From assembly GCA_964471945.1 (NCBI GenBank), contig CAYYIJ010000001.1, positions 48,168-112,167 of the forward strand: DNA of 64,000 bases, read 5' to 3'. The DNA is from an uncultured Chlorobiaceae bacterium (GTDB lineage: Bacteria; Bacteroidota; Ignavibacteria; UBA10030; SZUA-254). Under the pieces are notes generated by a model. The model was not told the DNA's origin, searched no databases, and was given only the letters and a program-made list of their open reading frames with translations. Below are positions 18,655 through 58,655 of the stretch, one piece after another; within the stretch, counting starts at the first letter, position 1, and each line of letters begins with the position of its first letter. The position numbers and the translations under genes are program-made.

Positions 18655-18725
18655 TACTCTGCGTTCTCAGCGTCTCTGCGGTGAAAGAATTTCTCGCAAA
18701 GATCGCAAAGGTCGCAAAGAAATAA
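18655..18725. repeat. Short intergenic repeat of the cgcaaag-triplet family.
   Basis: gcgttctcagcgtctctgcg...ctcgcaaagatcgcaaaggtcgcaaag. Related to the elements at 26482-26658, 38690-38770 and 58551-58655. Confidence 0.6.
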
Positions 18726-18746
18726 ATTTAAAAAGAATTTCTATTA

Positions 18747-20240
18747 ATGGAGAACAATATGAAAAAATATCAAAATTTTATTAACGGCAAGTGGTGTGAT
18801 GCCAAATCTGGAAAAACATTCGAGAACCGCAACCCAGCCAACTGGAGTGAGATAGTTGGTATCTTCCCAAAATCTGGGAAAGAGGATGCTGAAGAAGCGA
18901 TAAAAGCTGCACGAACAGCATTCGAAAAATGGCGGCTCGTGCCTGCACCTAAGCGTGGAGACATTCTTAAAAAAGTCGGCGACATAATGAGCAGCCGTAA
19001 AGATGAGATTGCAAAACTCATGACTCGCGAAATGGGTAAAGTTCTCACCGAAACAAAAGGCGATGTACAAGAAGGAATCGATACAGCGTACTACGGTGCA
19101 TCCGAAGGGCGCAGACTTTTCGGCAAGACAGCACCATCTGAGCTTTCAAACAAATTCAACATGGCGATACGTGTTCCAATCGGTGTGGCTGGAGTGATTA
19201 CACCATGGAATTTTCCGATGGCAATTCCAACATGGAAAATATTTCCTGCACTGCTTTGCGGTAACACAGTTGTCTTTAAGCCCGCATCCGATACACCAGC
19301 AACAGCAACGGTACTTGTAGAAATTTTATCGGAAGCAGGTGTTCCTGAAGGTGTTGTCAACATCGTTCATGGCGGTGGTGGTGAAGTTGGTAATGCAATA
19401 GTCGGAAGTCCCGATGTGGATTTAGTCAGCTTCACTGGCTCGACTGAGATTGGAATAAAGATTTCCGAGATGGGCAGTAAAACATTGAAGCGTATCTCGC
19501 TCGAACTCGGTGGTAAGAATGCACAGATTGTTATGGACGATGCCGACTTGAATCTTGCACTCGATGGCGTGCTTTGGGGAGCGTTTGGAACAACCGGTCA
19601 GCGTTGCACTGCAACCAGCCGATTGATTTTGCACGAAAAAGTTTTCGATAAGTTCATGTCGATGCTTATTGACCGCACTAAGAAACTCCGACTTGGCGAT
19701 GGACTTCTTCCAACTACCGATGTTGGACCTTGCGTAAACGAAGGGCAAAGAAATACTGATCATAGCTATGTTGAGATTGGATTGAAAGAAGGTGCAAAAC
19801 TTTCATGCGGTGGCGATATAGGAAAAGGCGGCGACCTCGACAACGGTTGGTTCTATCAACCGACTATCTTTACTGAAGTAACTCCCGATATGCGAATTGC
19901 AAAAGAAGAAATTTTCGGTCCGGTGCTTTCTGTTATCAGAATAAAATCGCTTGAGGAAGCAATCAACGTTCTCAACAATACCATCTACGGACTCTCGTCT
20001 TCTATTTATACGAAGAATGTGAACGATGCATTCAGAGCCATTCGAGATATCAAAGCTGGAATTACTTACATCAACGCACCGACAATTGGGGCAGAAGCTC
20101 ACATGCCGTTCGGTGGCGTGAAGCAAACAGGTAACGGTCACCGCGAAGGCGGCTGGACAGTTTACGACTTCTTCAGTGAATGGAAAACTGTGTACATCGA
20201 TTACAGCGGCGGATTGCAGAGGGCGCAAATAGATACTTGA
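18747..20240 (+). CDS. NAD(P)-dependent aldehyde dehydrogenase family protein.
   Basis: 497 aa. ALDH motifs VVFKPASDTP, ELGGKNA and FGTTGQRCTATSR. Confidence 0.85.
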   Translation: MENNMKKYQNFINGKWCDAKSGKTFENRNPANWSEIVGIFPKSGKEDAEEAIKAARTAFEKWRLVPAPKRGDILKKVGDIMSSRKDEIAKLMTREMGKVLTETKGDVQEGIDTAYYGASEGRRLFGKTAPSELSNKFNMAIRVPIGVAGVITPWNFPMAIPTWKIFPALLCGNTVVFKPASDTPATATVLVEILSEAGVPEGVVNIVHGGGGEVGNAIVGSPDVDLVSFTGSTEIGIKISEMGSKTLKRISLELGGKNAQIVMDDADLNLALDGVLWGAFGTTGQRCTATSRLILHEKVFDKFMSMLIDRTKKLRLGDGLLPTTDVGPCVNEGQRNTDHSYVEIGLKEGAKLSCGGDIGKGGDLDNGWFYQPTIFTEVTPDMRIAKEEIFGPVLSVIRIKSLEEAINVLNNTIYGLSSSIYTKNVNDAFRAIRDIKAGITYINAPTIGAEAHMPFGGVKQTGNGHREGGWTVYDFFSEWKTVYIDYSGGLQRAQIDT

Positions 20241-20526
20241 GGGAGGATGTAAGTAGTTGAGTAGATTAGTAGTTGAGCATTTTCCTCCCTAGGATAGGAT
20301 TTGCCGATAACAATATAAAATCAATATCTCAGAATTTTTTTGTCATTACTGCTGTTGCAATATATTGTTATCGATGGGGAAATGCTAAGAATAACTGTTT
20401 TCAATCTGTAGAGATTTTCAATTAATTATTCTAGATGTTTGCTAATGATTAATATTAAATATATATTAGGATAATCAAAGGCTTATTTACGATATTTTTA
20501 CAAACACAGTCTTAATTTTAGGTTAG

Positions 20527-21822
20527 GTGACTAAAATGCTTATAGAATTTACAGTTGAAAATTTCAGATCAATTAAGGGAAGACAAACCTTATCACTGCT
20601 CTCGTCTGGTAAAGTTAGTGAACATCCAGAAAATTTAATTATTACTAAAGATAACCTCAGGGTAAATAAATCTACAATTATTTATGGGCGTAATGCATCA
20701 GGTAAAACTAATTTCTTGATGGCGATGAAAGCACTCGAATTTCTAGTAAGAAGGTCTGTTCATTTTAAAATAGATCAAGAGATACAACCATATGAACCGT
20801 TTAAGCTAGATAAAAACTCAAGTGACAAACCGATCAGTTTGGAAATCGATTTTATCGCAAAAGATAATGTTAGGTACAAATACTCGGTATCATTTTCAAA
20901 ATCTGAAATAATTCATGAATCGTTATTTTATTATCCGAAGGGTCAACCTGCTAAGCTGTTTATGAGGGAAAACAAAAAACCTATTATTTTTGGTACGTCA
21001 ATAAAAGGTGATAGACGCAGTGTTGAGAAACAATTATTGAGTAATCAACTTTTTCTATCCAAGGGAGCAAACAGTAACATTGAACAACTAAAAATACCTT
21101 ATCTTTTTTTTAATAAATACATTTTTGCAAGAATTTATAGTGATTTTGATTTTGATGATTCTCTTATCAATAGTTATACAAGAGCTATTGCAGAAAAAAA
21201 AGATACAAAGTTAAAAGAAAATCTTGATAAGTTGATAAGGATTGCTGATACAGGTATCTCATCTATTATAGTTAATGAAGTAGCGGTTGATAAAATAAAA
21301 TTCCCGGACGGTTTATCGGAGGATGCTAAAAGGCGAATAATAGATAGAAATAAGTATGAGATAAAAACAATTCATAAAATCTATAATGAAGGCATTACAT
21401 CAGGTGAAATCACTTTTGACTTACATGATGAATCAATGGGCACAATAAAATTATTAGCAGTAGGTGGAATGATTCTCGATGCTTTAAGTGATGGTACTGT
21501 TTTAATCATCGATGAATTAGATAAAAGTTTACACCCATTGTTAACCCGTGTACTAATAAAGTTATTCCATAACTCCATAACTAATCCCAACAATGCACAG
21601 CTAATATTTGCGACTCACGATGTCTCCCTTATGGATAAGGAGTTATTTAGACGAGATCAAATCTGGTTTACCGAGAAGGAAATTGATGGGGCTACGAAGC
21701 TATATTCGCTATCAGATATAAAAGGAGTTCGGAAAGAATATTCATATGAAAAATGGTATCTGAGTGGGAGATTCGGTGGTACACCGGTTATCAACGAACA
21801 CGAGTTGATATCTAGTTTTTAA
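20527..21822 (+). CDS. AAA_21/ABC-type ATPase, AbiLi-like (OLD-family-like ATPase without a nuclease domain).
   Basis: Walker A GRNASGKTN, Walker B LIIDELDKSLHP, H-loop IFATHD. Lower GC than flanking genes. Confidence 0.8.
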   Translation: MTKMLIEFTVENFRSIKGRQTLSLLSSGKVSEHPENLIITKDNLRVNKSTIIYGRNASGKTNFLMAMKALEFLVRRSVHFKIDQEIQPYEPFKLDKNSSDKPISLEIDFIAKDNVRYKYSVSFSKSEIIHESLFYYPKGQPAKLFMRENKKPIIFGTSIKGDRRSVEKQLLSNQLFLSKGANSNIEQLKIPYLFFNKYIFARIYSDFDFDDSLINSYTRAIAEKKDTKLKENLDKLIRIADTGISSIIVNEVAVDKIKFPDGLSEDAKRRIIDRNKYEIKTIHKIYNEGITSGEITFDLHDESMGTIKLLAVGGMILDALSDGTVLIIDELDKSLHPLLTRVLIKLFHNSITNPNNAQLIFATHDVSLMDKELFRRDQIWFTEKEIDGATKLYSLSDIKGVRKEYSYEKWYLSGRFGGTPVINEHELISSF

Positions 21823-21823
21823 T

Positions 21824-22441
21824 ATGGCTAATCGACTCAGACAAAATAAAATTCTACCCCTTAGAAAAAGGGGACTGATTCTATGTGAAGGAAAAACAGA
21901 AATAAGTTACTTCAATGGATTGAAACATGACGAGATGGTTAGAAGGCGTCTTTCTGCAATAGATATTTACATCGGTCAGCCCTCAAATTACTCACCACTA
22001 GGTCTTGTGAAAGAGGCTAAGGAGAGAAAAAAACAAGCTATAAGGGAAAAGAATCACTATGATTTTGTGTGGTTGGTGTTTGATAGGAATGGTCATGATA
22101 AAGTACCAGAAGCATTCAATATGGCACATTCAAATAAAATTAAAATTGCTTTTTCGGTTAGGTGTTTTGAGTTTTGGTTCTTATTACATTTCACTCAATC
22201 GCTAAAACCATATACGAAATGCGATGAATTAATTCATGAATTGAAAAAGAAATATCATCGTTATGATGGCTCTATCAATCACTATGAAGAATTGAAAGCT
22301 CAAACCTTGACTGCAATAAGTAATGGTGCCTGGGTAATCAAGCAAAATCAAAATGATATAGACAGGGGTACACCTTTGTACGATTTAAATGCTTATACTG
22401 ACGTACATCTACTCGTGGAGTATTTACTTAATTTGTCATAA
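21824..22441 (+). CDS. RloB-family protein, AbiLii-like partner.
   Basis: N-terminal LILCEGKTEISYF matches the RloB signature (ILIVCEGEKTEPNYF). Starts 2 bp after the ATPase stop. Confidence 0.7.
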   Translation: MANRLRQNKILPLRKRGLILCEGKTEISYFNGLKHDEMVRRRLSAIDIYIGQPSNYSPLGLVKEAKERKKQAIREKNHYDFVWLVFDRNGHDKVPEAFNMAHSNKIKIAFSVRCFEFWFLLHFTQSLKPYTKCDELIHELKKKYHRYDGSINHYEELKAQTLTAISNGAWVIKQNQNDIDRGTPLYDLNAYTDVHLLVEYLLNLS

Positions 22442-22532
22442 ATAAATTTGATATAAAACGGTTCATCTGTGGACCTCGAATCTGAAATACTCAAAGAGCA
22501 TTCTAAGAGGCAGGTGTTATAGGAATGTGAAT

Positions 22533-22562
22533 AAAAAAAGTCGGCTATTAACCGACTTTTGA
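22533..22562. terminator. Bidirectional rho-independent terminator between convergent genes.
   Basis: aaaaaagtcggctattaaccgacttttg: 8-bp perfect stem flanked by an A-run and a T-run. Confidence 0.6.
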
Positions 22563-22595
22563 ATGTTATTGTGATATTAAAAGTTCAAGAAATCT

Positions 22596-25500
22596 TTATC
22601 GGATTAATACCATCTTTTTAACTTGAGTGAAAGTCTTTGCCAGATGAGCCAATCCCACTACACTAATTCGATAGAAATACATACCGCTTGCTACTGGAGT
22701 TCCTTTACCATTCGTAGAGTTCCATTTTATGGATTTTATACCAGCATCTTGAATATCATCAACGAGTGTGATTACTTCCTGACCGAGAATGTTATAGATT
22801 TTTAATTTGACATCTGAGGTTACAGGTAGCGTATATTCGATATTGGTAATAGGATTGAATGGATTTGGATAATTTTGATGTAATGAGAATGTTTCGGGGA
22901 GGTTATTGTCGGAAACGTTATTTATTAACGAATTAACAATGAGAAAATCTCCGGGTAGATTTGGTTTTACAGTAGTGATGCGGAATATTGTACCGATTTC
23001 AGGGAGAGTCTGATTGAAATTCCCTGATGGAGGTACCGCGCCAATATCGCCATTCCAATTTACTAAAACCATTCGTGCCATGACTTCAGTTTCACGATTA
23101 CCATTATAAGTACCTGCAATCATTTCGGCTTCAGCGGTTGAATATCCTGTTGCCCCGGGCGATATATCTTCAGGTCTCTGCCAATAAATCCAATCGGTAT
23201 ATGGGTCGTTTTCACCACCCGATACACTGTGATCATATGTTCCATAGAATTTTGTATTAGGTGCACCCATATTAAAGGTACGGCTGCTATCATCATCTGA
23301 TAACCAGGGGACCAATCTGTAATCGTCAGAGGGATCTATAGGTGTACCAATTCCGATATTCCATAATTCGAACGGTACCTGAAAGAAATTTGTTCCTGAG
23401 TTATAAGCATCGTAAGCCCAACCCCCACTTGATGTAAATCGTATCTCAAAATCGAACGGAACGATCTCATACCAAAAAGTTCCATTTCGTGTAGTACGAT
23501 CTATGAAAGCAGAATAACTACCTCTGTTTCCGTTATCTGCGGTATGAATGAACCATTTGGCTGGTCCAACTTGTTGCGCATCAGTGGGTCTAGTAGATGG
23601 GAAGGATGCAAAATCCGCAGCACCACCTTCGGTCGGTACTAATGGACCATTTGCATTAGCAACTACTTCAAAATTCGAGAAGCCAGGTAAAGGTGATCCC
23701 ATTTTCCATAATATTCCATCGATTACCGGGTGTGGAAATAATTCATCGGTGGAGGATGGGGAGTTGGTAAGTTTAATCTCACCGATTGTTGAATCTTTAA
23801 GTTGCCAAACAATTTGTTGGGTCATCGAGTCTCGCATAAAAGTTATTGAGTATGTATGACCGTTCAAAAGCAATGGGTCTGCGATAATCGGAGTAAGAAA
23901 ATCGGCCGGACCTTTAATCGATAATACATCTAATGTATCTCCCCAAAGAGAACCGGGATTCCAGCTTGATATTGGTACATCAAAGTTCACTAGCTTAAAG
24001 TGATGATCAAAATATATTGTGGTCGTGAAATTCAATGTATCTCCTGATGCTGGAGCGGTTAATCTTACATAGAATGAAGTATCGGAGAGTGTACCGCCTG
24101 GAATAATAGGAATCGAATTATATGGTGTTTTATTTTGTGCACTTGTAACGAAAATCTCACTGATGTCATTAGCATTATCTGGATTTTCGATATCGAACGT
24201 TAGATGAACAAGTTCATAATTATTTATCTTTTTATCTTGTTGCCCATTCTCCCATATAACTCTCCAATTTTTCAATTGTGGCAAAGGACGAATAGCGATT
24301 CGGGAATATACCCCAGTAAATGTATCGGTACGTCCTGTATATTGTACTATTAAATCAGCTTTGAAAGGAAACTTTCGATTTTCTCTTTGTTGTATGTTTC
24401 CCCAAATATTGTCTCCAGCAAATCCATCCTGATGTAAGCCATCGTCATACAAATAGGTATAGAATTCAGATTCCAATCCATACTCAGGTGAGAAATATAA
24501 TTTTACACTCGACGCGGTTGGGTATTCCGTTAGATCCACAGTCGTTGTCAACTCGGTTGTCGTAGCACTTGTACTTCTTGATGATATTGAGCATTTAGGG
24601 TAGTGGAAACCTTGGTCGTAATAGCGCTGAGCGATAACATCAGTCTTTCGCAAGTTTTTAATAGCATCGAGTCTATCTATCCCCATGCCGCCTATACATG
24701 CAAGCATCACTATTTGAGTATCACCCACAGCCAAATTGAACGGACCCGTACAAAGCATCATACGTTTATCGTCTGGACGTGGATCAAGCTCGTAAGAGGT
24801 CAATGGATCTGCAGGGTAAGTCCATCTACTTGGTTTAGTATCTCCATTTTTTTCCAAACCTCGCATCAAGTTGTACAATTCTTGGTCATTATCTGGATCG
24901 CCTTCAGCTCCACGAACGTTAATGTACCTAACTGTAGAGCTCAATCCTAAAACTTTTTTACCCGGAACTTCTCTCTGTTCAAAACCATCTGAAGTCAATT
25001 CAAGATAACGCGCGGTATCAGTTGTTGATCCGGTAACTACTGGTCCCTGGAAAAAGTCCGCACCAAATGCTGAACCACCATAACTAATTGGGTCGGTGTT
25101 ATCAGCGTTGTACATGAAAAGCATGTTCTTTACGGTATCATCAGTTCCTGGAATATTATAGAGTGTATCTGTTGCAACGAGATCATTGGAAGCCCTATCA
25201 ACATCAGAGTCAAACCATCCCGCAATATAAACATCAGAAAGATTTTTTGTTCCTTTATTTATTATTTTCCAATACATGAAAAAGACATCACTATAGCCTG
25301 AGCTATTCAATTGGATTGACGTTTGTTGTACTTCTAAGCCAAGGGGATCTTTCTGCGATGTATCAGGTATATTATGGCGGTTCGAGTCCATATCATTATA
25401 AACACACCAACTCATCAGATCTCCCACCACTAGTGGACTACCGTCACCTTTGATAGGTGCGCCATAATTTTTGGGCCAATTTGTGTAATCGTCTATACCA

Positions 25501-25985
25501 TCTCCATTACCGGGGGGAGTTCCATCGCTACCGTCAGAATAAAGTGCAAAGAGTTTGTTTAATGGAGACCCTGGATCTGTTGCGATTGGAATTTCAGAGG
25601 TATCACGCGGATTATTTTTTATCAAGGCACCGGGTTGAAATTCAGCCTCAAAATCGACTACACTAACTTTTGGTGTACCATCGACGAGTGCCCCGATCTG
25701 CAAACCTGCAGCATAAATAATATAGGTTCCAGTCCCTTTTGGGAACTCACCGCCAGCACCATTTCCAGATAGCCGACCTGCGATATCATACGCATATGGA
25801 CCGTAGTTTGTCATCTCGAAAGCCCAGTTATTACCTGCCATAGTAACTTGGTTCTGTACCATCGCTTCATTAATTTTTTTTGTTGCGATACTTTTTCTTA
25901 CCCCCTTGCCTGCCTGTCCTTGGATACTAATGATCATTAGCAACCCAATAACTAAATACAACCGAGTTTTTAAATAATTATACAT
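22596..25985 (-). CDS. Large secreted protein (1129 aa) with T9SS type-A C-terminal sorting domain.
   Basis: Signal peptide at the N-terminus. C-terminus is NYPNPFNPITNIEYTLP...VKLKIYNILGQEVITL (TIGR04183-like). No catalytic motif recognised. Confidence 0.8.
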   Translation of the reverse strand: MYNYLKTRLYLVIGLLMIISIQGQAGKGVRKSIATKKINEAMVQNQVTMAGNNWAFEMTNYGPYAYDIAGRLSGNGAGGEFPKGTGTYIIYAAGLQIGALVDGTPKVSVVDFEAEFQPGALIKNNPRDTSEIPIATDPGSPLNKLFALYSDGSDGTPPGNGDGIDDYTNWPKNYGAPIKGDGSPLVVGDLMSWCVYNDMDSNRHNIPDTSQKDPLGLEVQQTSIQLNSSGYSDVFFMYWKIINKGTKNLSDVYIAGWFDSDVDRASNDLVATDTLYNIPGTDDTVKNMLFMYNADNTDPISYGGSAFGADFFQGPVVTGSTTDTARYLELTSDGFEQREVPGKKVLGLSSTVRYINVRGAEGDPDNDQELYNLMRGLEKNGDTKPSRWTYPADPLTSYELDPRPDDKRMMLCTGPFNLAVGDTQIVMLACIGGMGIDRLDAIKNLRKTDVIAQRYYDQGFHYPKCSISSRSTSATTTELTTTVDLTEYPTASSVKLYFSPEYGLESEFYTYLYDDGLHQDGFAGDNIWGNIQQRENRKFPFKADLIVQYTGRTDTFTGVYSRIAIRPLPQLKNWRVIWENGQQDKKINNYELVHLTFDIENPDNANDISEIFVTSAQNKTPYNSIPIIPGGTLSDTSFYVRLTAPASGDTLNFTTTIYFDHHFKLVNFDVPISSWNPGSLWGDTLDVLSIKGPADFLTPIIADPLLLNGHTYSITFMRDSMTQQIVWQLKDSTIGEIKLTNSPSSTDELFPHPVIDGILWKMGSPLPGFSNFEVVANANGPLVPTEGGAADFASFPSTRPTDAQQVGPAKWFIHTADNGNRGSYSAFIDRTTRNGTFWYEIVPFDFEIRFTSSGGWAYDAYNSGTNFFQVPFELWNIGIGTPIDPSDDYRLVPWLSDDDSSRTFNMGAPNTKFYGTYDHSVSGGENDPYTDWIYWQRPEDISPGATGYSTAEAEMIAGTYNGNRETEVMARMVLVNWNGDIGAVPPSGNFNQTLPEIGTIFRITTVKPNLPGDFLIVNSLINNVSDNNLPETFSLHQNYPNPFNPITNIEYTLPVTSDVKLKIYNILGQEVITLVDDIQDAGIKSIKWNSTNGKGTPVASGMYFYRISVVGLAHLAKTFTQVKKMVLIR

Positions 25986-26062
25986 TTTTACTCCTCCATT
26001 GATATGTTGATAGATAATTTTTATTTAATGTTAGAAAAAAAATCTGACATAGTCAAGTATAA

Positions 26063-26095
26063 AAATAAAAAAAGTCGGTTGATAACCGACTTTTA
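26063..26095 (-). terminator. Rho-independent terminator.
   Basis: aaaaaaagtcggttgataaccgacttttaa, nearly identical stem to the terminator at 22533-22562. Lies downstream of the minus-strand sod remnant. Confidence 0.6.
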
Positions 26096-26121
26096 ACTCT
26101 TAAATAAGAGAAGATGTCTTT

Positions 26122-26424
26122 TTATTTACCAATTACCAACTTTTTATAGCGTTCGTTGATTCGTCCCCAATGTAGATTTGCCATGAAATTGTCGATGTAA
26201 GCTGCACGCTTTGCACCATCCTTATGATAGTATGCATGCTCGAATACATCGAGTGCAATCATTGGGATACCACCCCAGATCGCGCCATACTGGTGTTCAT
26301 CGACGAGGATATTTAGCAACCGACCAGACCATAATCTATCTACCACGAGAAGTCCCCATCCGCTTAACTTAGCTGAGATTGCAGTTGCTTTAAAATCTTC
26401 CTTCCATCTTTGAAGCATCGTCAT
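26122..26424 (-). pseudogene. sodA: Fe/Mn superoxide dismutase, C-terminal domain only (N-terminal half absent).
   Basis: 100 aa matching SOD residues ~100-200 (GSGWGLLVV...ALDVFEHAYY...NW). An in-frame stop lies 2 codons upstream of the Met. No N-terminal SOD sequence in any frame in the ~45 bp before the adjacent MITE-like element. Confidence 0.65.
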
Positions 26425-26481
26425 ACCTCAGTTAAATAAAAGCTCACTTATTGTTTCCGAATAGCTGATCATCATTGAGTA

Positions 26482-26658
26482 ACTGATGTTACGCAAGAAT
26501 ATGGTTTATCACAAAAGTTTCGCGTGTCTTTGCGTCCTCTGCGACTCTGCGTTTAACCAAAATGCTAAATTGCTCTTGGAAATGAAGAGGAACCGCAAAG
26601 ACGCTAAGAACGCAAAGGTTCGCAAAGATGATTATTTAGTTCTGTGCGTAACATCAGT
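26482..26658. repeat. MITE-like element, 177 bp, with 14-bp terminal inverted repeats and a 5-bp target-site duplication.
   Basis: TIRs actgatgttacgca / tgcgtaacatcagt. Flanked on both sides by the direct repeat GAGTA (26477-26481 and 26659-26663). Interior carries a cgcaaag triplet. The right end overlaps the acrB-like stop codon. Confidence 0.7.
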
Positions 26659-29600
26659 GAGTAACCTTTCTTTCCTCTGATAAATACGTGTACATCGCTG
26701 GTATTACATACAATGTCAGTACACCGGAAAATATCAAACCACCGATAACGGCGATACCCATCGAGACGCGGCTCTCGGAACCGGCACCAAGTCCTAATGC
26801 AATTGGCAAGATACCGAATATCGTTGATAGACTCGTCATTAGTATGGGGCGGAAACGTGCGACGGCAGAACTTTTCACTGCATCCACAATGGATAGACCT
26901 TTCGCCTTTCGCTGGTTAGCAAATTCTACTATCAGAATTCCGTTCTTAGTTACAAGTCCGATGAGCATAATCATACCTATCTGACTGAAGATATTTATAG
27001 TTTGACTGAAATACCAGAGTGTAAATAAAGCGCCTGCAATTGCGAGCGGTACAGTGAACATGATGATGAGTGGATCTCGGAAACTCTCAAACTGAGCGGC
27101 AAGGATCAAGTATGTAAGCGTGAGCGCTAAAAGAAATACAAAAATCAAACTCGACGAGCTTTCTGAAAAGTCCCGCGCGGCACCGGCGAGAGAAGTTGCA
27201 AACGATTCATCCAATACTTTATTAGCAATCTCATCCATGGCGTTAATTCCATCGCCAAGTGAATAGCCCGGCGACAGACCTGCAGAGATTGTAGCAGATT
27301 TATAACGGTTGAATCGGTACAGTTGAGGCGGATTTGCTTGTTCGGAAATGGCAACTAAGTTATCAAGTTGTATAAGCTCGCCGTTACGACTTCGCACAAA
27401 TATTGATTTTAAATCCATCGGCTCATCGCGATTTTCACGCGTAAGCTGTCCGATTACTTGATACTGCTTCCCATCTTTAATAAAGTAACCATATCGCTGT
27501 CCGCCTAATGTTAGTTGCAATGTTTGAGCAACATCGCTGATAGAAACACCGAGTGCGCGAATTCGATCTCGGTTTATTGATATTACCAACTCAGGTTTAT
27601 TAAATTTCAAATTTATATCGGATACACCAAACGCTGGATGATTATTGACTTCGTCAATGAAGCGAGGTAGTATATCTTGCAATTTTATTAGATTAGGCGC
27701 TTGAAGTACATATTGCACTGGCAATCCGAAACGCGCCATGCCTGTACCGACACTGATAGTTTGTTCTTGAGTAACGATTGTTCGTGCGTCGTTCATCTGA
27801 CGCACCCTGCGGGATAAATCCTCAGCAATATCATTCTGTGTTCGGTCACGATCAACAGGTGAATTTAATGTTATAGTCATAGAACCTGCATTTGCGCCGC
27901 CGGCAAATCCTGAAGTGTTTGCCATGACATTCCTTACTTCCGGAACTCTTTGTCTAATCACATCGATTAAACTATTCATGTAATTATCCATTCTTTCAAA
28001 CGAGGTACCTTCAGGAGCGGTAGAACTGATACGCAGTCGACTTCGGTCTTCTAAAGGTGCAAGCTCTTTTTGAATTACGATAATAAAAAGCGATAGCATT
28101 CCTGCCGATAAAAGAATTACTATAAATGCCAGCCAACGGCGCTGTAAGAAGGAATTCAAAGAGTTACGGTATAAATCAATTAATTTGTTGAAAAACGGTT
28201 CGGTCTTATTATAAAACCAGTTATGTTTACTATGAGGCTTTATGATTCGTGAGCTCAGCATAGCTGTAAGTGTTAGTGCAACAAATGCCGAAATCGCAAC
28301 AGAGCCGCCTATCACGATACCGAATTCTTTGAAAAGGCGACCTGTGAACCCTTGCAAAAAGACAATAGGCATAAAGACTGCAATGAGAGTCATTGTTGTA
28401 GAGAGTACGGCGAAGAAGACTTCCTTTGAACCTTTCAGTCCCGCCTCAATCGGGTCCATTCCTTGTTCAATCTTGGCGTAAATATTTTCCAGTACGACAA
28501 TGGCATCATCTACGACAATGCCAATTGCTAATATCAAACCCAATAAAGTTAGAATATTAATAGAAAAATCTGCAAGATACATTATGAAAAATGTTCCGAC
28601 TAAGGACAGAGGAATTGCAAATACAGGAATTAGAGTTGTTCTCCAAGCACGGAAAAAAAGAAAAATGATCAATACGACAAGTATAAATGCAATAATGATA
28701 GTCTCTTTGACCTCTTCAAGAGATGCACGAATGTATTCTGTGGTATCGAAGCCTTTGGCAAGCTCAATGTCTTCGGGTAAATCTTTCTTGATTAGTTCTA
28801 CGCGGCGGAAAAATTCGTTAGCTATAGCAATGTGATTCGACCCGGGCTGTGGTACGATTGCAATGGCAACTCGTGGTCCCGATAATCCTTTAGTTGCCGA
28901 CCGCTCGTTTTCCGGACCAAGCTCAGCAGATCCTATATCTCGAAATCGAATTATCTGTCCGTTATGCTCACGGATTATTAGGTTGTTGAATTGTTCAGGA
29001 GTCTCGAGCCGGCTGAGTGTTCTTACTGTAAGCTCGACATCGTTTCCTTCAATTCGACCGGCAGGCAGCTCAAGGTTTTCTGCATTCAACGCACTGCGAA
29101 CATCTAAAGGTGTTAGCTGATAGGCGGCGAGTTTCGCTTGATTCAGCCACAAACGCATTGAATAGCGTTTCTCTCCAAAAATCCTTACTTCACTTACTCC
29201 CGGAATAGTTTGCAGACGTTCCTTAAATGTACGGTCAGCAATATCACTTAATTGTAATAGGTTCCTGGTGTTGCTGCCTATGCTCAATATAACTATCGGA
29301 CTTGCGTCGGCATCGGCTTTTGAGACGACTGGGGGATCAACATCGGGTGGCAAATTGCGGGCGGCGCCTGCTACTTTATCTCGCACATCGTTTGCGGCTG
29401 TTTCGAGATCAACCGCTAAGTCGAATTCGATTGTGATTGAGCTTCGACCGTCTCGACTTGTAGAGTTGATTGTGCGAATTCCCGGTACACCACTTATTGC
29501 ATCTTCAAGACGCTCTGTAATCTGCGATTCGATTACATCTGCATTCGCACCCGTATATGCTGTATTAACGGTTATTATTGCAGGGTCAACATTTGGATAT

Positions 29601-29707
29601 TCGCGTACCCCAAGGAAAGTATAACCTATTACTCCGAATAAAATAATAATAAGAGACATTACAATCGTCAGCACGGGGCGCCTAATACATACAGCAGATA
29701 AACTCAA
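26654..29707 (-). CDS. RND-family efflux transporter permease (AcrB/CzcA-like).
   Basis: 1017 aa. 12-TM RND architecture with two large periplasmic loops; typical N-terminus RRPVLTIVMSLIIILFG. Confidence 0.9.
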   Translation of the reverse strand: MSLSAVCIRRPVLTIVMSLIIILFGVIGYTFLGVREYPNVDPAIITVNTAYTGANADVIESQITERLEDAISGVPGIRTINSTSRDGRSSITIEFDLAVDLETAANDVRDKVAGAARNLPPDVDPPVVSKADADASPIVILSIGSNTRNLLQLSDIADRTFKERLQTIPGVSEVRIFGEKRYSMRLWLNQAKLAAYQLTPLDVRSALNAENLELPAGRIEGNDVELTVRTLSRLETPEQFNNLIIREHNGQIIRFRDIGSAELGPENERSATKGLSGPRVAIAIVPQPGSNHIAIANEFFRRVELIKKDLPEDIELAKGFDTTEYIRASLEEVKETIIIAFILVVLIIFLFFRAWRTTLIPVFAIPLSLVGTFFIMYLADFSINILTLLGLILAIGIVVDDAIVVLENIYAKIEQGMDPIEAGLKGSKEVFFAVLSTTMTLIAVFMPIVFLQGFTGRLFKEFGIVIGGSVAISAFVALTLTAMLSSRIIKPHSKHNWFYNKTEPFFNKLIDLYRNSLNSFLQRRWLAFIVILLSAGMLSLFIIVIQKELAPLEDRSRLRISSTAPEGTSFERMDNYMNSLIDVIRQRVPEVRNVMANTSGFAGGANAGSMTITLNSPVDRDRTQNDIAEDLSRRVRQMNDARTIVTQEQTISVGTGMARFGLPVQYVLQAPNLIKLQDILPRFIDEVNNHPAFGVSDINLKFNKPELVISINRDRIRALGVSISDVAQTLQLTLGGQRYGYFIKDGKQYQVIGQLTRENRDEPMDLKSIFVRSRNGELIQLDNLVAISEQANPPQLYRFNRYKSATISAGLSPGYSLGDGINAMDEIANKVLDESFATSLAGAARDFSESSSSLIFVFLLALTLTYLILAAQFESFRDPLIIMFTVPLAIAGALFTLWYFSQTINIFSQIGMIMLIGLVTKNGILIVEFANQRKAKGLSIVDAVKSSAVARFRPILMTSLSTIFGILPIALGLGAGSESRVSMGIAVIGGLIFSGVLTLYVIPAMYTYLSEERKVTH

Positions 29708-29730
29708 ACAATCTCCTTTCTATTAATCTT

Positions 29731-30798
29731 TCATTCTTTGGAAAGCTTAACAGCCATGCCAGACCGTAATTGCAGGATAGCAGAAGTAATTAGTGTGTCG
29801 CCAGATTTTAATCCGTTCGTGATTTCTATATATTCTTCCGTTCGAGTTCCGATTTCGACCGTATGTTCTTCGACTTTTCCATTTTTATAGATAAATACTT
29901 TATGCTTTTTCATTTCAGGAATAACCGCATACGAAGGAACGGCGAGGGCTTCTTTTTCTTTTAATTGAACTTCCACGTTTGCAAACCTTCCCGGAAGAAG
30001 ATATCCATCGTGATTTGGGCATGTGGCTCTTATCCGTAATGTGCGTGTGTTAGGATCGACTTTTGGAGAGATAGCGTAAACTGTCGCATTAAATTGTCTA
30101 GATGTGCCCTGAACGTTGAATGTGATCTTGTTTCCTAACTTTATCTCTCCCGAATATTTTTCTGGAAAAGTAAAGTCAATTTTTACTCTGCTAATATCTT
30201 GAAACGTAGTAATGAGAGTAGATGGAGAAATGTAACTGCCTTCGCTGACATATCGAAGTCCGATAATTCCATCGAAGGGAGTGCGTATCTCGGTTTTATT
30301 GAGCTGAGCTTGAACCAATTGTGCTTCTGCTTTGATTACGTTCATCTCATTTACGGATTTTTCGTAATCTTCCGGACTGATTAAGTTTTTATCGGATAAT
30401 TGGCGTTGGCGTTCTTCTTGTTGCTCGGCTAACTTTTGTTTTGAGTGGGCTGATAGAAATCGTGCTTGAAGCTCGTCATCATTTATTTTCAGGAGTAATT
30501 CTCCCCTCTTAACTTTATCACCTTCTTTAAAATAAATATTGGTAATCTTCCCGGCAATCTCGCTTCTGATTTCCACTTCTTCGTTCGAAAGAATTGTTCC
30601 AACTGTAACAATTTTTTCACTAATTTTTTCCGGAAGTAATATCTGGTATTTAACGGATATTTGTGGATTCTGTGTGCTGGATGCCAGATTGTTGTTTTTA
30701 TTTGTGCCACCTTCGAAAAGGATTTTGATAAGAACAAAAGCAACAATTACTACACAAGTAATAATTGAGGTAAGCTTATAGCGATTTATTTTTGTCAT
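29731..30798 (-). CDS. RND efflux periplasmic adaptor (membrane fusion protein, HlyD family).
   Basis: 355 aa. N-terminal TM, coiled-coil, lipoyl/beta-barrel domains. Directly upstream of the RND permease. Confidence 0.85.
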   Translation of the reverse strand: MTKINRYKLTSIITCVVIVAFVLIKILFEGGTNKNNNLASSTQNPQISVKYQILLPEKISEKIVTVGTILSNEEVEIRSEIAGKITNIYFKEGDKVKRGELLLKINDDELQARFLSAHSKQKLAEQQEERQRQLSDKNLISPEDYEKSVNEMNVIKAEAQLVQAQLNKTEIRTPFDGIIGLRYVSEGSYISPSTLITTFQDISRVKIDFTFPEKYSGEIKLGNKITFNVQGTSRQFNATVYAISPKVDPNTRTLRIRATCPNHDGYLLPGRFANVEVQLKEKEALAVPSYAVIPEMKKHKVFIYKNGKVEEHTVEIGTRTEEYIEITNGLKSGDTLITSAILQLRSGMAVKLSKE

Positions 30799-31114
30799 GA
30801 TAATGTGTAAATGACTGATGTTGACACACAGAGTAGAATCAAATTAGTCAAACCTTGAATAAAATACAAACAAAACAGTTGTTTGGCAGTAAAAGTTTTT
30901 TTTCTTATATTCTGACATGAAATTCTTCCGACAGACAGAAAAAGTTTGGTTTAAACTTCAAATTCCGCAAATCCCAGGAAGACCTTACATTCTTTCCCTC
31001 TACGAGCACCAGGAATTCTTCTAAATCGCGTTTAGTTTTTGTCATTTTAATCATGAGGCAATTTTAAAATATTGCTTTATGAAACTAATAACTTATTACT
31101 ATTAACTTATAACT

Positions 31115-32467: not shown

Positions 32468-32488
32468 TTCATCTAATATCTTGAAATT

Positions 32489-32517
32489 AAAAGCCCTGAC
32501 ATAAAATCAGGGCTTTT
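32489..32517 (+). terminator. Rho-independent terminator.
   Basis: aaagccctgacataaaatcagggcttttt. Confidence 0.7.
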
Positions 32518-38640: not shown

Positions 38641-38806
38641 ACTAGAGACATCTGAAATATTGTTTCTCGTGCCAAAGGCATCATTTCGTGACAAAGATGC
38701 AAAGATCACTAAGGTTTGATGTTTGAACACAACATTTTCTTTGCGACCTTAGCGAGCTTTGCGAGATGTATTGTTTTGAATTTTTCAGAAGTATCTAATA
38801 TTTAAT
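38641..38806. repeat. MITE-like intergenic element with imperfect terminal inverted repeats (tagagacWtctgaaa). Encloses a reverse-oriented cgcaaag-family unit.
   Basis: Left end tagagacatctgaaatatt, right end tttcagaagtatctaatatt. Interior is tttgcgaccttagcgagctttgcgag (rc of the cgcaaag triplet core). Confidence 0.55.
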
Positions 38807-39799: not shown

Positions 39800-39985
39800 G
39801 ATGAGTCATTCCGTCCCGACTGTGTCGGGATCGAAATCTAAGCTATTAGAGACTTCTGAAATATTATAAAACCATACCCGTCATTCCGAACGCGGGCAGG
39901 TGTTTCGGAATCTAAGCGATTTTAGACCCTGAAATGAATTCAGGGTGACCCTTTGGGTGATTTTTCAGAAGTCTCTATTATAGAT
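39800..39985. repeat. Composite hairpin-repeat region: two gtcattccg...aatctaagc units and a 138-bp element bounded by perfect 15-bp inverted repeats tagagacttctgaaa.
   Basis: gtcattccgtcccgactgtgtcgggatcgaaatctaagc and gtcattccgaacgcgggcaggtgtttcggaatctaagcg. TIRs at 39848-39862 and 39968-39982. Internal palindrome accctgaaatgaattcagggt. Confidence 0.55.
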
Positions 39986-40079
39986 TCCTGTCTACGACTC
40001 ATTTTTGCTTTTCATTTAACGATTATTTATTTTATTCATCGAATCATTTAAGTATCACTTACATTAAAAGGAAATAGGT

Positions 40080-43397: not shown

Positions 43398-43434
43398 GCT
43401 GGTAGATGATATCAGTTAATAAAAATTTCTTACA

Positions 43435-44825: not shown

Positions 44826-44856
44826 ACACCGTCAACAATTTATTTTTCCCAATAAG

Positions 44857-44885
44857 AAACCCCAATCATTACTGATTGGGGTTTT
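44857..44885 (+). terminator. Rho-independent terminator.
   Basis: aaaccccaatcattactgattggggtttt. Confidence 0.6.
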
Positions 44886-45082
44886 ACTTTCTCATAAATA
44901 ACTGTTACTGTTGGGATAAATGTCCTTATCTTATCAACACCATCTTTTTAACCTGAATGAAGATTTTGCCATCATCCTTGTTATCGATTTGTTCGGTGAC
45001 GATGAGATAACCTAGAGTTAAACATTTTTCTTGAACACTCCACTAAAATATCTTATCTTTAATCTCATTACGATAATTAGTT

Positions 45083-49368: not shown

Positions 49369-49399
49369 TTGATTTAGTATTCAACCCGCCTTCGGCGGG

Positions 49400-51958: not shown

Positions 51959-52020
51959 ACGAATCCCTTATTCAAATATTTTAACATATTATTGATTGTC
52001 TGGGAGACGGATTTTATTAT

Positions 52021-52160
52021 AAGAGACTTCTAAAAAAACGTAAAAGTCATGGTGAGCTTGTCGAACCATGACTATTTACTACAAGCTCACGCTTCGACAA
52101 ACACAGCGTGACAGGTACTATAGGTGTTGTACACATTAAAGACGAACAGCACCTCTGAAA
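52021..52160. repeat. Palindrome-rich intergenic repeat region.
   Basis: ataagagacttctaaaaa (TIR-like), gtcatggtgagcttgtcgaaccatgac hairpin, and acaagctcac inverted copy. Confidence 0.4.
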
Positions 52161-52162
52161 CT

Positions 52163-54142: not shown

Positions 54143-54196
54143 AAATTATTCCTTTGTTAATGGATTATGTTATGATAGTTGATAAAAAATAATAAT

Positions 54197-55882: not shown

Positions 55883-57132
55883 TTTAAGTTATCAGTTTGA
55901 AATTGTTGAGTATAATAGCCGGGTGGGAAATATTCGTTGTTGACTAATATCGAAATAACTTCGCCGGTGATTTTATGAACTTTCATTGTAATATAAGATG
56001 GCTGATACACAAAAAATCTAATCGACGTCGTGTGAGTAAATGGATTAGGATAGTTTTGAGACAATTTATTTTTTACGATAAGTTTTATAATAAGACAATC
56101 GAGTGTCGGATCGTTGAGTTTTATTGTGCCGCTGTCAAGAAGTGTGAAAGGACCAATTACATTTTTACCAGGGCAACTGGTCAATTCGAATAGGGCAGGT
56201 TGGTCAACAAACTTCCACTCGAATGTAAGCGGAAAGGCATTCGATTGAATTTTAATTCTATAAACATATACACTATCAGGTTTTAAATTTGATGGATATG
56301 CTCGTATTGAATGATTCGTAGAAAAACGTACATCGTATCCTGGAGGGGGTGGAAGGGGAGGTAATTCTGAGTAATCTGGATTTGAAATGAGGTCTGAACG
56401 TGCTAAAAATAAATCTTTTGGTCGTCCTACTGAATCGCGAATGATTATATGGTTCCATCGCGACGTATCATCGTTTCCTTTCTGAACATAAGAAAAGGAG
56501 TGTGTTGAAGAAGATGTATGTACGTTTGGTGGAATCTGGTCAACATTCGGTATCCAGAAAAAAGAAAATTCATTCTTCCCCGGTTTCAAAACACCGTAAA
56601 AGATTGCTGCAGCCCGATGCTGATTTTGTGTGTCTCTTAAAACAAACTGCATAGTATCAAGGATAGAAAAATTGCCAACAATATCGTGGTTTTTGTTTGT
56701 TATGTTGAAAAATCTATAGTTAGATAAATTGGGAAACAAGGTTGTATCTTCTGTATAGAATGTTCCATCTGAGGATGTATATCCGAGTTGATTTGTAACA
56801 ATATCTTGGTCAGCATTAACTATCAATATTGAATCTAGGAAGTGAATTAATCCAGTGCTTGTATCTTGTAATGTTGTCGATAGTTTGAATACCGTTGAAA
56901 CAATTAATCGGTGTGTGGGATTTAGATTTTGAGGTAGAAGATTTCCACCAGAGATTTGTAAACCTCGAACGGGATTCCCCGCACTATCTTTTACACTGAT
57001 ACGCAGACTAAAAGATTCGGAAGGCGGTGATGGAGGTTTGGTTGGCACATCTTTACAAGATAAAAAATAACCAAACATGATTGCGAGGATGAGTGCGAAC
57101 ATAAATTTTAAAAAATATTTCATATTAATCAA
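55879..57132 (-). CDS. Secreted hypothetical protein with T9SS type-A C-terminal domain.
   Basis: Signal peptide. C-terminus YPNPFTHTTSIRF...MKVHKITGEVISIL. 4-bp overlap with the downstream gene. Confidence 0.6.
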   Translation of the reverse strand: MINMKYFLKFMFALILAIMFGYFLSCKDVPTKPPSPPSESFSLRISVKDSAGNPVRGLQISGGNLLPQNLNPTHRLIVSTVFKLSTTLQDTSTGLIHFLDSILIVNADQDIVTNQLGYTSSDGTFYTEDTTLFPNLSNYRFFNITNKNHDIVGNFSILDTMQFVLRDTQNQHRAAAIFYGVLKPGKNEFSFFWIPNVDQIPPNVHTSSSTHSFSYVQKGNDDTSRWNHIIIRDSVGRPKDLFLARSDLISNPDYSELPPLPPPPGYDVRFSTNHSIRAYPSNLKPDSVYVYRIKIQSNAFPLTFEWKFVDQPALFELTSCPGKNVIGPFTLLDSGTIKLNDPTLDCLIIKLIVKNKLSQNYPNPFTHTTSIRFFVYQPSYITMKVHKITGEVISILVNNEYFPPGYYTQQFQTDNLK

Positions 57133-58382
57133 TTTCTACTTTTTTCAACCCAGACTTGAACTAAATTCAGAACAGTTTCGATAGATTTTTCCATACCCCA
57201 AAGCGAAATCCACTCAGTTTTGCCGTGAAAGTTTTGTCCGCCTGTGAAAATATTCGGACATGGCAGTCCCATCGCTGTCAATCGTGAACCATCCGTACCA
57301 CCGCGGATTGGTACCCATTTGGGTTCAAGACCTGCACGCTTGGTCGCATCAAATAAACATTCAATCACACGCGGTTCTTTCTCTAAACCTTCACGCATAT
57401 TGCGGTACGACTCTTTTATTTCTAATTCAATCCTCGCTTTTGGATGTAAAGGTTTAACTTCTTGGATAATATTTTCCAATTTTTGTTTTAGCGTGTCTAA
57501 TCCTTCGGTTTTAAAATCCCGCAATAAAATATTCAGCGTCGTTTTTTCTTCTTCACCCTTGAGGACATGAGGATGAATATACGGCTCATAACCTTCAGTC
57601 GTTTCTGGTGCTACATCTTTCGGCATCCGAACAATAATATCTGCCATAGCCCGGATCGAATTAACCATTTTATTTTTCGCTGTCCCAGGATGGATGTTCC
57701 GACCATGAACGGTAATAATGGCGCTGTTTGCGCTGAATGTTTCTTTATTCAATTCACCGATTGCATCGCCATCTACCGTATAGGCAACATCAGCTCCGAA
57801 TTTTTTTAGATCGAAATATTTTGTTCCATTCCCCACCTCCTCGTCCGGTGTGAATCCAACTTTGATGTTACCATGTAATATTTTTGGATTACTTAAAAGC
57901 GATTGGATCGCGGTCATGATAATAGCAATACCGGCTTTGTTATCTGCTCCGAGTAGTGTAGTTCCGTCTGATGTAATTATAGTTTTACCAATACATTTTC
58001 TTAATTCTGGGTTCTCAGCTTCACGTATGACAATGGACGGATCACCCGGAAGAACTATATCACCTCCGTTGTATGTAAGCATTTGAGCTTTAACATTTTC
58101 ACCATTTGCGGAAGGCGAAGTATCTACATGTGCAATCAATCCAATCGATGGAACTTTTTGAAATGATCTATCTGTTGGTGGAATATTGCTCGGTAAAGTG
58201 GCTATCACATAACCATATTGATCAATATTAACATCTTGTAGCCCGAGTATTTTTAACTCTTTCACGAGCAGATTGAGTAAGTCGAATTGTTTCTTAGTGC
58301 TTGGATAAGTATCTGAATCCTCCTTTGATTGAGTATCGATCTTTACATATCGTAGAAATCTATCAAGTACTGTTTCTTTCAT
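57129..58382 (-). CDS. pepT: Peptidase T (M20B tripeptide aminopeptidase).
   Basis: 417 aa. N-terminal MKETVLDRFLRYVKIDTQS and the GADNKAG metal-binding region. Confidence 0.85.
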   Translation of the reverse strand: MKETVLDRFLRYVKIDTQSKEDSDTYPSTKKQFDLLNLLVKELKILGLQDVNIDQYGYVIATLPSNIPPTDRSFQKVPSIGLIAHVDTSPSANGENVKAQMLTYNGGDIVLPGDPSIVIREAENPELRKCIGKTIITSDGTTLLGADNKAGIAIIMTAIQSLLSNPKILHGNIKVGFTPDEEVGNGTKYFDLKKFGADVAYTVDGDAIGELNKETFSANSAIITVHGRNIHPGTAKNKMVNSIRAMADIIVRMPKDVAPETTEGYEPYIHPHVLKGEEEKTTLNILLRDFKTEGLDTLKQKLENIIQEVKPLHPKARIELEIKESYRNMREGLEKEPRVIECLFDATKRAGLEPKWVPIRGGTDGSRLTAMGLPCPNIFTGGQNFHGKTEWISLWGMEKSIETVLNLVQVWVEKSRN

Positions 58383-58550
58383 GGTTATGTCCTAATTCGA
58401 ATATTATAAATTGTTTTGGAAATCGTTTAGAAGCATTGTATGAATTTTCGATAAAAAATCCAAATAAATGCAAAACCTGGATAAATCGAAAAACTATATT
58501 GACAACCATCACGGATAAATTGTGCAATGATTCATAATTTATATATGTTA

Positions 58551-58655
58551 ACCAAAATGCTAAATTGCTCTTGGAAATGAAGAGGAACCGCAAAGTCGCT
58601 AAGAACGCTAAGGTTCGCAAAGATGATTATTTAGTTCTGTGTGTAACATCAGTAT
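58551..58655. repeat. Truncated second copy of the cgcaaag-triplet MITE-like element.
   Basis: ~105 bp, >95% identical to 26553-26658, including the right TIR tgtgtaacatcagt. The left ~75 bp of the full element are absent. Confidence 0.7.

Follow-up and report, generated by a model that had tools for sequence, protein, structure and literature searches.

What are the four clusters of a CGCAAAG heptad that lie dispersed among the genes of an uncultured Chlorobiaceae bacterium? They occur in a 64-kb stretch of its genome (contig CAYYIJ010000001.1, positions 48,168 to 112,167), and this whole stretch is called the window below. An initial annotation of the window took them for arrays of a protein-binding site. 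Our analysis leads to another answer, to which we give a probability of about 0.6: all four are palindromes without a gene that belong to a very widespread family of inverted-repeat elements, the full form of which brackets a gene for a small nuclease-fold protein named GxxExxY. A defined, non-random module is common to the window elements and to a family that crosses phylum boundaries, and a minimal cassette with the nuclease gene has this module as its inverted ends. The same arms flank the GxxExxY gene across phyla, which indicates an undescribed, very widespread family of DNA that is probably selfish.

The repeats are clearly not a product of base composition. CGCAAAG occurs 19 times in the window against 6.8 +/- 2.5 expected from dinucleotide-preserving shuffles, and the triple pattern CGCAAAG-N1-3-CGCWAAG-N1-3-CGCWAAG occurs four times against 0.00 in 100 shuffles, which bears out the four positions put forward initially and shows, within the window, a motif frequency above expectation. 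A looser scan for related heptad arrays added no real member in the window. All four copies lie outside long open reading frames (ORFs), in keeping with the claim that they are always intergenic. The initial description needs correcting on two points. The heptads are not separated by fixed spacers of two and three nucleotides, their spacing varying from 8 to 10 nt, and three of the four arrays have an inverted partner arm. Rather than free-standing one-sided arrays, the window elements are imperfect palindromes of 63-180 nt whose arms pair into long imperfect hairpins.

Copy 1 is located between the stop codon of an adenylosuccinate lyase gene (18651) and the start of an aldehyde dehydrogenase gene (18747), both on the plus strand. 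Its left arm (18657-18680, minus strand) is CTCTGCG tt CTCAGCG t CTCTGCG, read as CGCAGAG/CGCTGAG/CGCAGAG on the minus strand, and it pairs in the folds of both strands with a right arm (18695-18719, plus strand) of three exact CGCAAAG heptads with a 9-nt period. In the 14-nt loop between them (gtgaaagaatttct, 18681-18694) the module termini (..GCG-GTGAAA and TTTCT-CGC..) abut head to head, an arrangement referred to here as type A. Copy 2 has an AcrB-type pump gene on one side and a superoxide dismutase fragment on the other, both encoded on the minus strand; it consists of a left arm CTTTGCG tc CTCTGCG a CTCTGCG (26528-26551, minus strand), a 42-nt loop (26552-26593) and a right arm CGCAAAG a CGCTAAG aa CGCAAAG gtt CGCAAAG (26594-26627, plus strand), in which the triple pattern covers 26594-26617 and a fourth heptad extends to 26627. 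Copies 1 and 2 are imperfect palindromes because each has a complementary heptad array to its left, and their minus-strand folds with RNA parameters reach z scores of -5.6 and -6.4, respectively. Copy 3 is a type B hairpin (38665-38766, minus strand) made of TCT-CGCAAAG ct CGCTAAG gt CGCAAAG at 38739-38766 (triple pattern 38739-38763, minus strand), a loop, a degenerate partner arm at 38688-38714 and CGAGA/TCTCG closing pairs. Copy 4 (58550-58653, plus strand) has no left arm. It corresponds to the right half of the miniature inverted-repeat transposable element (MITE) around copy 2, with the loop, a four-heptad arm at 58589-58622 (triple pattern 58589-58612, fourth heptad to 58622) and the right terminal inverted repeat (TIR) at 58640-58653; over 58548-58653 it is 97% identical to 26553-26658, in agreement with the more than 95% identity first reported. 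Copies 3 and 4 both sit between divergent genes. With its terminus, the array of copy 1 reads atTTCT-CGCAAAG at CGCAAAG gt CGCAAAG; the array of copy 3 begins with caTCT-CGCAAAG, and copies 2 and 4 have a GAAC terminus.

The most familiar explanations for such intergenic hairpins find little in the window. Terminator and promoter scans gave no signal on the four elements, and an intrinsic terminator (a short GC-rich stem followed by a T run) was rejected since none of the copies received a terminator-like call. The genome's own terminators have a different form (AAAAGTCGG...CCGACTTTTTTT, at 22536-22560 and 26070-26094), so that the initial statement that the repeats are not simple terminators stands. 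In the window, Rfam covariance models at gathering score recovered only a tRNA-Pro and an SRP RNA and nothing on the repeats, and at E-value thresholds copies 1 and 2 gave only sub-threshold matches to generic hairpins. A coding origin, as a small peptide or as RK-rich repeats, was also rejected for the window and for most other loci: a period of 8 nt does not keep a reading frame in threes, and the spacing is variable.

The module is not confined to this organism. Scanning 185,579 species genomes retrieved at least 120 loci, whereas about 10 chance matches are expected in the whole collection by our own estimate, which assumes uniform base composition. Among the matches listed are Acidobacteriota (many of them Pyrinomonadaceae), Chloroflexota, Cyanobacteriota, Bacteroidota, Planctomycetota, Verrucomicrobiota, Nitrospirota, Pseudomonadota, Myxococcota and others, more than ten phyla altogether. 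The module was also present in at least 120 viral contigs; a minority of the listed viral matches are true coding repeats with a 9-nt period (L127, L130, L136 and L139 for instance), and arrays crossed by an open reading frame were excluded by an open-frame filter. Unusual arrays are found in viral contigs (L173 around 5950-6060, L142 at 4640-4830): in some, long arrays show a drift of the word from CACAAAG through CGCAAAG and TACAAAG to TACAAAA, and others carry a tandem 85-nt unit that contains the triple array.

The module can be described as a terminus TCT, TCTCA or TTTCA followed by three CGCNRAG heptads spaced by 8-10 nt. In 237 non-coding arrays the 5' flank follows the consensus T-Y-T-C-A (T 0.61 at -5, T 0.64 at -3, C 0.64 at -2), the heptad spacing is 8 nt in 325 cases, 9 nt in 185 and 10 nt in 15, the spacers are mainly G or A and the 3' side is purine-rich. 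For membership in the family we required of an arm this terminus plus about three C-R-C-N-R-A-G heptads; copies 1 and 3 fit this definition, and copies 2 and 4 have the GAAC terminus instead. Among arrays free of search ascertainment, 171 have two heptads, 217 three and 14 four, with practically none in shuffles. Three is thus the mode, which is not the geometric decay expected of slippage. Other words occur with the same architecture in the same loci (CACAGAG, CGCAGAG, CGCCAAG, CGCAGAT, CACAAAG, CACGGAG).

As in the window, most arrays are paired. Out of 227 non-redundant arrays, 92 have a downstream arm (TCA-array...array-TGA, type B), 35 have an upstream arm (array-TGA...TCA-array, type A, the arrangement of window copies 1 and 2) and 67 are solo, the rest showing weak pairing. 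Paired elements measure 60-220 nt. No target-site duplication (TSD) was seen beyond the termini of 87 paired and 31 gene-bearing elements. Where two arms differ, the mismatches fall mostly at heptad positions 4-5, transversions among them, and CGC and AG hardly vary. The idea that these periodic mismatches are a designed feature was rejected, as no more than 8 of the 98 types of mismatch were repeated in each of the three heptads.

With regard to genomic context, around the 33 hairpins elsewhere for which both neighbours could be assigned, gene orientation was co-directional in 21 cases, convergent in 9 and divergent in 3. Operon ends and divergent promoters are thus not special sites; the initial notion of a dispersed intergenic family itself holds. 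Frequently a stop codon precedes the element by 0-20 nt or a start codon follows closely on its end, and viral contigs have their copies between the genes for portal, connector and tail proteins.

Such a placement is what would be anticipated if the repeats acted at the RNA level, as co-transcribed long stems serving as RNase III substrates or 3'-end stabilisers, with the heptad periodicity being incidental. E. coli repetitive extragenic palindromic (REP) sequences and the intercistronic sites of phage T7 are the models for such a role. It agrees with the many copies found 0-20 nt behind a stop codon or in intercistronic positions, those among phage portal, connector and tail genes included, and with the stems of 25-30 bp with regular mismatches; the stem of a full element would also enclose a whole ORF. 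We nevertheless consider this explanation unlikely. In the co-directional contexts the better-folding strand was the transcribed one in 10 of 21 (10 versus 10, Wilcoxon p 0.83), and solo arrays were sense in 9 cases and antisense in 13. The arm mismatches at heptad positions 4-5 include transversions that allow no wobble pairing, there is no Rfam match, and three copies of one conserved word in many phyla would be left unexplained. The hairpin family shows no transcription-strand bias, which therefore argues against a strand-specific RNA element or RNA-binding array and favours an element that is symmetric at the DNA level. A strand-specific RNA structure was also rejected on the site of copy 1 itself, since the G.U versus C.A asymmetry of copies 1 and 2 is opposite at the orthologous site of a related contig (L122). 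RNA processing may be a secondary effect of the insertions.

What, then, accompanies the arrays? The 185 ORFs flanking 153 arrays belong to unrelated housekeeping families, and no enrichment of transposases or recombinases was found among the 25 most frequent Pfam families of either flanking-ORF set. The sole hint came from PDDEXK_3, with 4 of the 185 ORFs. Every PDDEXK_3 gene found in the array-selected loci had arrays at its ends; at L052 the gene lies 2.5 kb from the selecting array and its flanking word differs from the selecting one.

The absence of a recurrent neighbour also bears on the possibility that the arrays are duplex operators for a nucleoid-associated or ribbon-helix-helix regulator, which would bind the three heptads cooperatively and control adjacent promoters. 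MetJ, ParG and omega bind repeats of 7-8 bp, and three direct heptads with 8-9 bp spacing, a conserved CGC..AG and a variable centre look compatible with such binding, as does the position of copies 3 and 4 between divergent genes. This reading appears improbable to us. The neighbours are housekeeping genes of no recurrent function, orientation is random, spacing varies from 8 to 10 nt within one array, and most arrays have an inverted partner 2-150 nt away. Moreover, copies are found inside operons and phage late-gene clusters, and the same site can be empty in a close relative. The nucleoid-protein role suggested initially has found no support.

The link to the nuclease gene was then approached from the side of the protein. 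We picked 80 metagenome loci by GxxExxY protein homology alone, independently of arrays. Counting arrays up to 200 nt away, 68/78 loci had one upstream of the gene, 69/77 had one downstream and 61/75 had both; within 120 nt of the gene an array was present in 70/75. This speaks indirectly for the initial suggestion of a binding array for a transposition-type protein. The median gap was 13 nt from array to start codon and 9 nt from stop codon to array. Among control intergenic gaps of the same contigs, 15/60 contained an array, which puts the enrichment next to the gene at about 3.5-fold and means that contigs with the gene commonly hold gene-less arrays as well. In 31 loci the nearest upstream array was forward and the nearest downstream array reverse, and in 15 loci the opposite held, a ratio similar to that of gene-less elements (92:35), and the commonest layout, seen in 18/58, was one forward array, the gene and one reverse array. 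The termini of gene-bearing elements are sharply T-C-T at both ends, with nothing conserved outside, and between different GxxExxY loci homology ends at the arrays. CGCAAAG is the commonest word at these loci (107), followed by CGCCAAG (50), CGCAGAG (23) and CGCGAAG (20). The full element is about 450-480 bp long and consists of two inverted modules bracketing an ORF of about 125 aa. No second recurrent cargo family was found among the other ORFs bracketed by arrays, and gene-less versions greatly outnumber gene-bearing ones.

The association is also seen in isolates: in Sphingomonas parapaucimobilis a GxxExxY element lies between fabD and fabG, and in Bacteroides finegoldii one follows radA, with the same 9-nt spacing as in the window. 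GxxExxY proteins of these two species are WP_347090946 and WP_032839887, respectively, and Daejeonella rubra also has one. The TCT-CGCAAAG flavour of the window is found as well in Peijinzhouia, Daejeonella and marine Flavobacteriales. Comparison of two metagenome contigs (L251 and L271) revealed a GxxExxY element inverted between identical flanks. At three loci (L250, L258 and L261) a complete hairpin stands on each side of the gene, the two being almost identical and in direct orientation, which looks like the outcome of recombination between a circle with one hairpin and a resident hairpin.

The GxxExxY protein is a PD-(D/E)XK protein of about 125 aa (TIGR04256/PF13366, PDDEXK_3), which NCBIfam names 'GxxExxY protein'. 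It has a nuclease fold with a conserved D...E-x-K, in which D and E-x-K are invariant in our alignment (D67, E77 and K79 in its numbering, the first sequence being L030:3726-4100), and the family is large, with 23,860 clusters at 50% identity. A survey of the superfamily describes the family as being of unknown function, present in prokaryotes and viruses, and subject to multiple inter-division transfers (PMC3424549). No membership of the protein was found in PADLOC defence systems or PHROG phage families, and sequence search found no solved structure. The gene is rare on plasmids, with 7 records. Divergence of the protein correlates weakly with divergence of the heptad word (Mantel r 0.17, p 0.002), and the two arrays at one gene resemble each other more closely than arrays taken from different genes do. 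Some proteins, including P0241, P0242, P0244 and P0250, have 275-295 aa and two matched stretches; these are either tandem genes read through an array or real fusions.

Taken as a working model, the gene-less window copies would relate to the full GxxExxY element as MITEs, or hairpin-forming REP doublets (REPINs), relate to their autonomous partners. The three heptads of each arm would be recognition sites of the GxxExxY nuclease, or of an oligomer of it, on duplex, hairpin or cruciform DNA. The protein, supplied in trans, could move or maintain the gene-less copies, and the genome of the window organism would then be predicted to carry a copy of its gene elsewhere. Hairpins would be gained and lost in intergenic spacers, including those inside operons.

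Several points weigh against this model. By tblastn, no GxxExxY gene was found in the 64-kb window nor in about 80 kb of related Ignavibacteria DNA (L001, L023 and L122-L125); the window copies are therefore classed as gene-less derivatives and not as full elements. Compared with other intergenic gaps on the GxxExxY contigs, arrays are enriched only about 3.5-fold at the gene. The arrangement of copies 1 and 2, type A, is the less frequent one. A DDE-type transposase may instead be the mover of copies 2 and 4, since these were duplicated through a different TIR shell with 5-bp flanking repeats. The Mantel correlation and the likeness of arrays of one gene could both result from shared descent alone. 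Finally, one GxxExxY protein (P0174) has the same LeuRS/FtsX context in every contig examined (23, of which 7 are shown), and its gene therefore looks stable rather than hopping.

The case of the cassette-like layouts deserves separate consideration. The hairpins might act like the attC sites of integrons, for an unlinked recombinase, GxxExxY being simply the commonest cassette. Strings of the gene-hairpin-gene-hairpin kind occur (at L030 a small zinc-finger ORF, GxxExxY and hairpins), near-identical hairpins flank the gene on both sides in L250 and L258, the spacer between the lyase and dehydrogenase genes, where copy 1 lies in the window, holds a hicAB cassette in one relative (L123), and a minority of termini, TTTAAC...GTTAAA, resemble attC core sites. 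Most termini, however, are TCTC(A)CGC and not RYYYAAC/GTTRRRY: at flank positions -3, -2 and -1, where attC would have AAC, the frequencies are A 0.16, A 0.23 and C 0.30, and the majority reads TCTCA or TTTCA. No integrase is found among the recurrent flanking families, nor any recurrent cargo besides GxxExxY. We therefore regard this explanation as quite improbable.

The site of copy 1 shows that these elements come and go. The closest homologues of the adenylosuccinate lyase (84-89% identity) belong to Ignavibacteriales or Bacteroidota metagenome-assembled genomes, and the lyase-dehydrogenase pair is syntenic in four related contigs. In the window the two genes are separated by 95 nt, which include copy 1. 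The spacer measures 102 nt in L122, where it holds a related hairpin; in L123 it is occupied by the hicAB cassette, and in L124/L125 it is an empty 18 nt. The L122 hairpin has kept the left arm, and the words of its right arm are different (CGCTGAG, CACGGAG, CGCGGAG). Hairpin elements are thus gained or lost at orthologous sites on a short evolutionary scale, and their arm words are changeable.

Copies 2 and 3 lie within TIR-bounded outer shells, and the TIR sequences claimed for them were located at both. The shell of copy 2 (26482-26658) has 14-bp TIRs, ACTGATGTTACGCA at 26482-26495 with its complement at 26645-26658, and direct GAGTA repeats at 26477-26481 and 26659-26663. Having both TIRs and flanking direct repeats, it qualifies as a MITE, but of a family separate from the heptad arrays. 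The entire 177-bp MITE folds into a single hairpin (DNA parameters, single-stranded fold, z -5.2). Its right TIR overlaps the stop codon of the AcrB-like gene, at 26654-26656, and provides this codon (ORF end 26654). The shell of copy 3 (38643-38797; TIR TAGAGACWTCTGAAA) is bounded by TAGAGACATCTGAAA at 38643-38657 and TTTCAGAAGTATCTA at 38783-38797. The two shells are unrelated to each other. Copy 3's shell has a sister copy at about 39846-39990 that has only the TIRs in common with it, the interior being different.

It might be proposed that ordinary DDE-type MITEs account for everything, the arrays being the mere interior of the two window shells. In favour of this, copies 2 and 4 share a shell and are 97% identical, the 14-bp TIRs come with 5-bp flanking repeats, and copy 3 lies in the other shell. 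This is nonetheless the reading that we find least credible of those considered. There is no shell around copy 1, the copy-3 shell and its sister differ in their interiors, and the module recurs with conserved termini in many phyla where these shells are missing. Copies 2 and 4 have clearly been copied as cargo of an unrelated MITE shell. Copy 4 starts inside the copy-2 MITE loop, and yet ATGTT is present at both of its edges (58545-58549 and 58654-58658); this resembles the transposition of a MITE version with one end, or with an internal end, accompanied by a 5-bp duplication, although chance is also possible. The attC-like, operator-array and MITE-interior readings all fit worse than that of gene-less relatives of a GxxExxY element.

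Among the systems already described, the closest known kind is the REP/REPIN with its REP-associated tyrosine transposase (RAYT) gene. REPs and REPINs are short intergenic imperfect palindromes, present as singlets and inverted doublets and flanking a small gene (Bertels & Rainey 2011, PMC3116915; Di Nocera et al. 2013, PMC3733652). The heptad elements likewise are many-copy intergenic palindromes, found as singlets and hairpin-forming inverted doublets mostly downstream of genes, leave no TSD and flank a single small element-associated gene. The definition of a REP calls for a palindrome of 20-40 bp that has an unpaired GTAG or CGTC tag at one end (PMC3733652), whereas the heptad elements have no such tag and end in a paired TYTC(A)-CGC. 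Each heptad arm is made of three tandem heptads and not of one 20-40-bp palindrome; the associated gene encodes a PD-(D/E)XK nuclease, in contrast to the Y1 HUH transposase RAYT; and the heptad word is common to many phyla, whereas REPs are largely lineage-specific. With MITEs the heptad elements share inverted repeats around a short, variable non-coding interior, a gene-bearing counterpart with the same ends and a tendency to nest, but they have no TSD at the array termini and no DDE transposase. The two outer shells of the window behave as classical MITEs, of families apart from the heptad elements.

The closest precedent for an unexplained shared heptamer is provided by the TAACTGA repeats. 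These reportedly consist of contiguous heptamers, whereas the present heptads lie 1-3 nt apart, typically in threes and next to a conserved terminus, and their arrays occur as inverted pairs and around a nuclease gene. According to MacGregor (2015, PMC4679880), the TAACTGA repeats of Beggiatoaceae, cyanobacteria and Bacteroidetes are direct and lie mostly just upstream of start codons; as with the cyanobacterial short tandemly repeated repetitive (STRR) sequences, a 7-nt word is iterated 2-6 times in intergenic positions and is common to distant phyla, with no known transfer mechanism. The attC sites are comparable as imperfect palindromes of 60-140 nt placed directly after small cassette ORFs, sometimes in strings, but the core sites of the heptad hairpins do not match, no linked integrase is seen and there is essentially one cargo family. 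At the ends of Mu, Tn7 and IS607-family elements, several short direct repeats bind the element's own recombinase; these repeats measure 12-22 bp and the enzymes are DDE or serine recombinases. Several short direct repeats per end are a point in common, but no homology to the heptad elements was found. Other resemblances (TTTCAC as a parS half-site, the Tn3 inner inverted repeat, the RNA polymerase pause consensus, Rho rut sites, MetJ-like boxes), were dropped for lack of a test or of fit.

We found no literature description of these elements or of the gene-repeat link; subscription journals lay outside the coverage of the search and a prior description is possible. The window feature falls within a broader kind that is already known, the miniature palindromic non-autonomous repeats. 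If the link between gene and arms holds, it gives a first functional context to the large uncharacterised GxxExxY family, on which there is almost no literature. It would also account for a class of intergenic hairpin repeats, frequent in phage contigs and in the genomes of environmental bacteria, that has no name in the literature searched, and a PD-(D/E)XK system would join HUH and DDE enzymes as a type maintaining miniature palindromic repeats. Going further, and only tentatively, GxxExxY and its triple-heptad inverted repeats could constitute an unrecognised selfish or mobile class, a 'nuclease transposon' or homing cassette of about 0.45 kb with abundant gene-less hairpins, spread across most bacterial phyla and phages and inserting seamlessly between the genes of conserved operons. 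The heptads would then be a nuclease recognition code, and word variants (CGCAAAG, CGCCAAG, CGCAGAG, CACAGAG and others) would be co-evolving specificities.

Heptad arrays can distort gene calls. At L030 (4670-5464, minus strand) the frame of a sugar transferase has no stop before a heptad array and reads through it, and at L338 (1483-1911) the annotated GxxExxY coding sequence is extended over both arms. Recognising the module during annotation would reduce such over-extensions and flag insertions inside operons.

Some further observations concern the surroundings of the elements. About 11 kb of the window (around 20300-31100), between the aldehyde dehydrogenase gene and a class-III aminotransferase gene, is missing from the syntenic contig L122. 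This segment, which looks like a variable island, contains an AAA_21/AbiEii-like ATPase with a partner ORF, a 1129-aa protein with a T9SS tail, the superoxide dismutase fragment, the copy-2 MITE, and the AcrB pump with a membrane-fusion protein. The fragment is a 100-aa ORF (26122-26424, minus strand) that matches only the C-terminal domain of Fe/Mn superoxide dismutase, the N-terminal domain being missing, and the copy-2 MITE starts about 60 nt upstream of it; it is probably a truncated pseudogene at the island edge. The two terminator hairpins at 22536-22560 and 26070-26094 are 92% identical (AAAAGTCGGYT..AACCGACTTTT and a T run) and bound the region of the 1129-aa T9SS gene. A separate MITE-like family with the TIR TAGAGACTTCTGAAA and exchangeable hairpin interiors has members at 38643-38797, 39846-39990 and about 52035-52055; the member at 39.9 kb carries 'gtcattccgaacgcgggcaggtgtttcggaatc'-type hairpins in place of the heptad hairpin. 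A toxin-antitoxin-like pair of small DUF4258/DUF2283 genes (14703-15169) separates the two halves of a split transketolase; L001 and L122 have this insertion as well, and L123 and L124 lack it. Lastly, other arrays with an 8-nt period directly follow stop codons, at 14644-14690 and 20250-20277 in the window, at 12880-12900 in L122 and at 7675-7740 in L123. Their words contain stop codons (TGGAATGA TGGATTAA TGGAATGT; GTAGTTGA GTAGATTA GTAGTTGA), and with a period of 8 nt three repeats therefore give a stop in all three frames.

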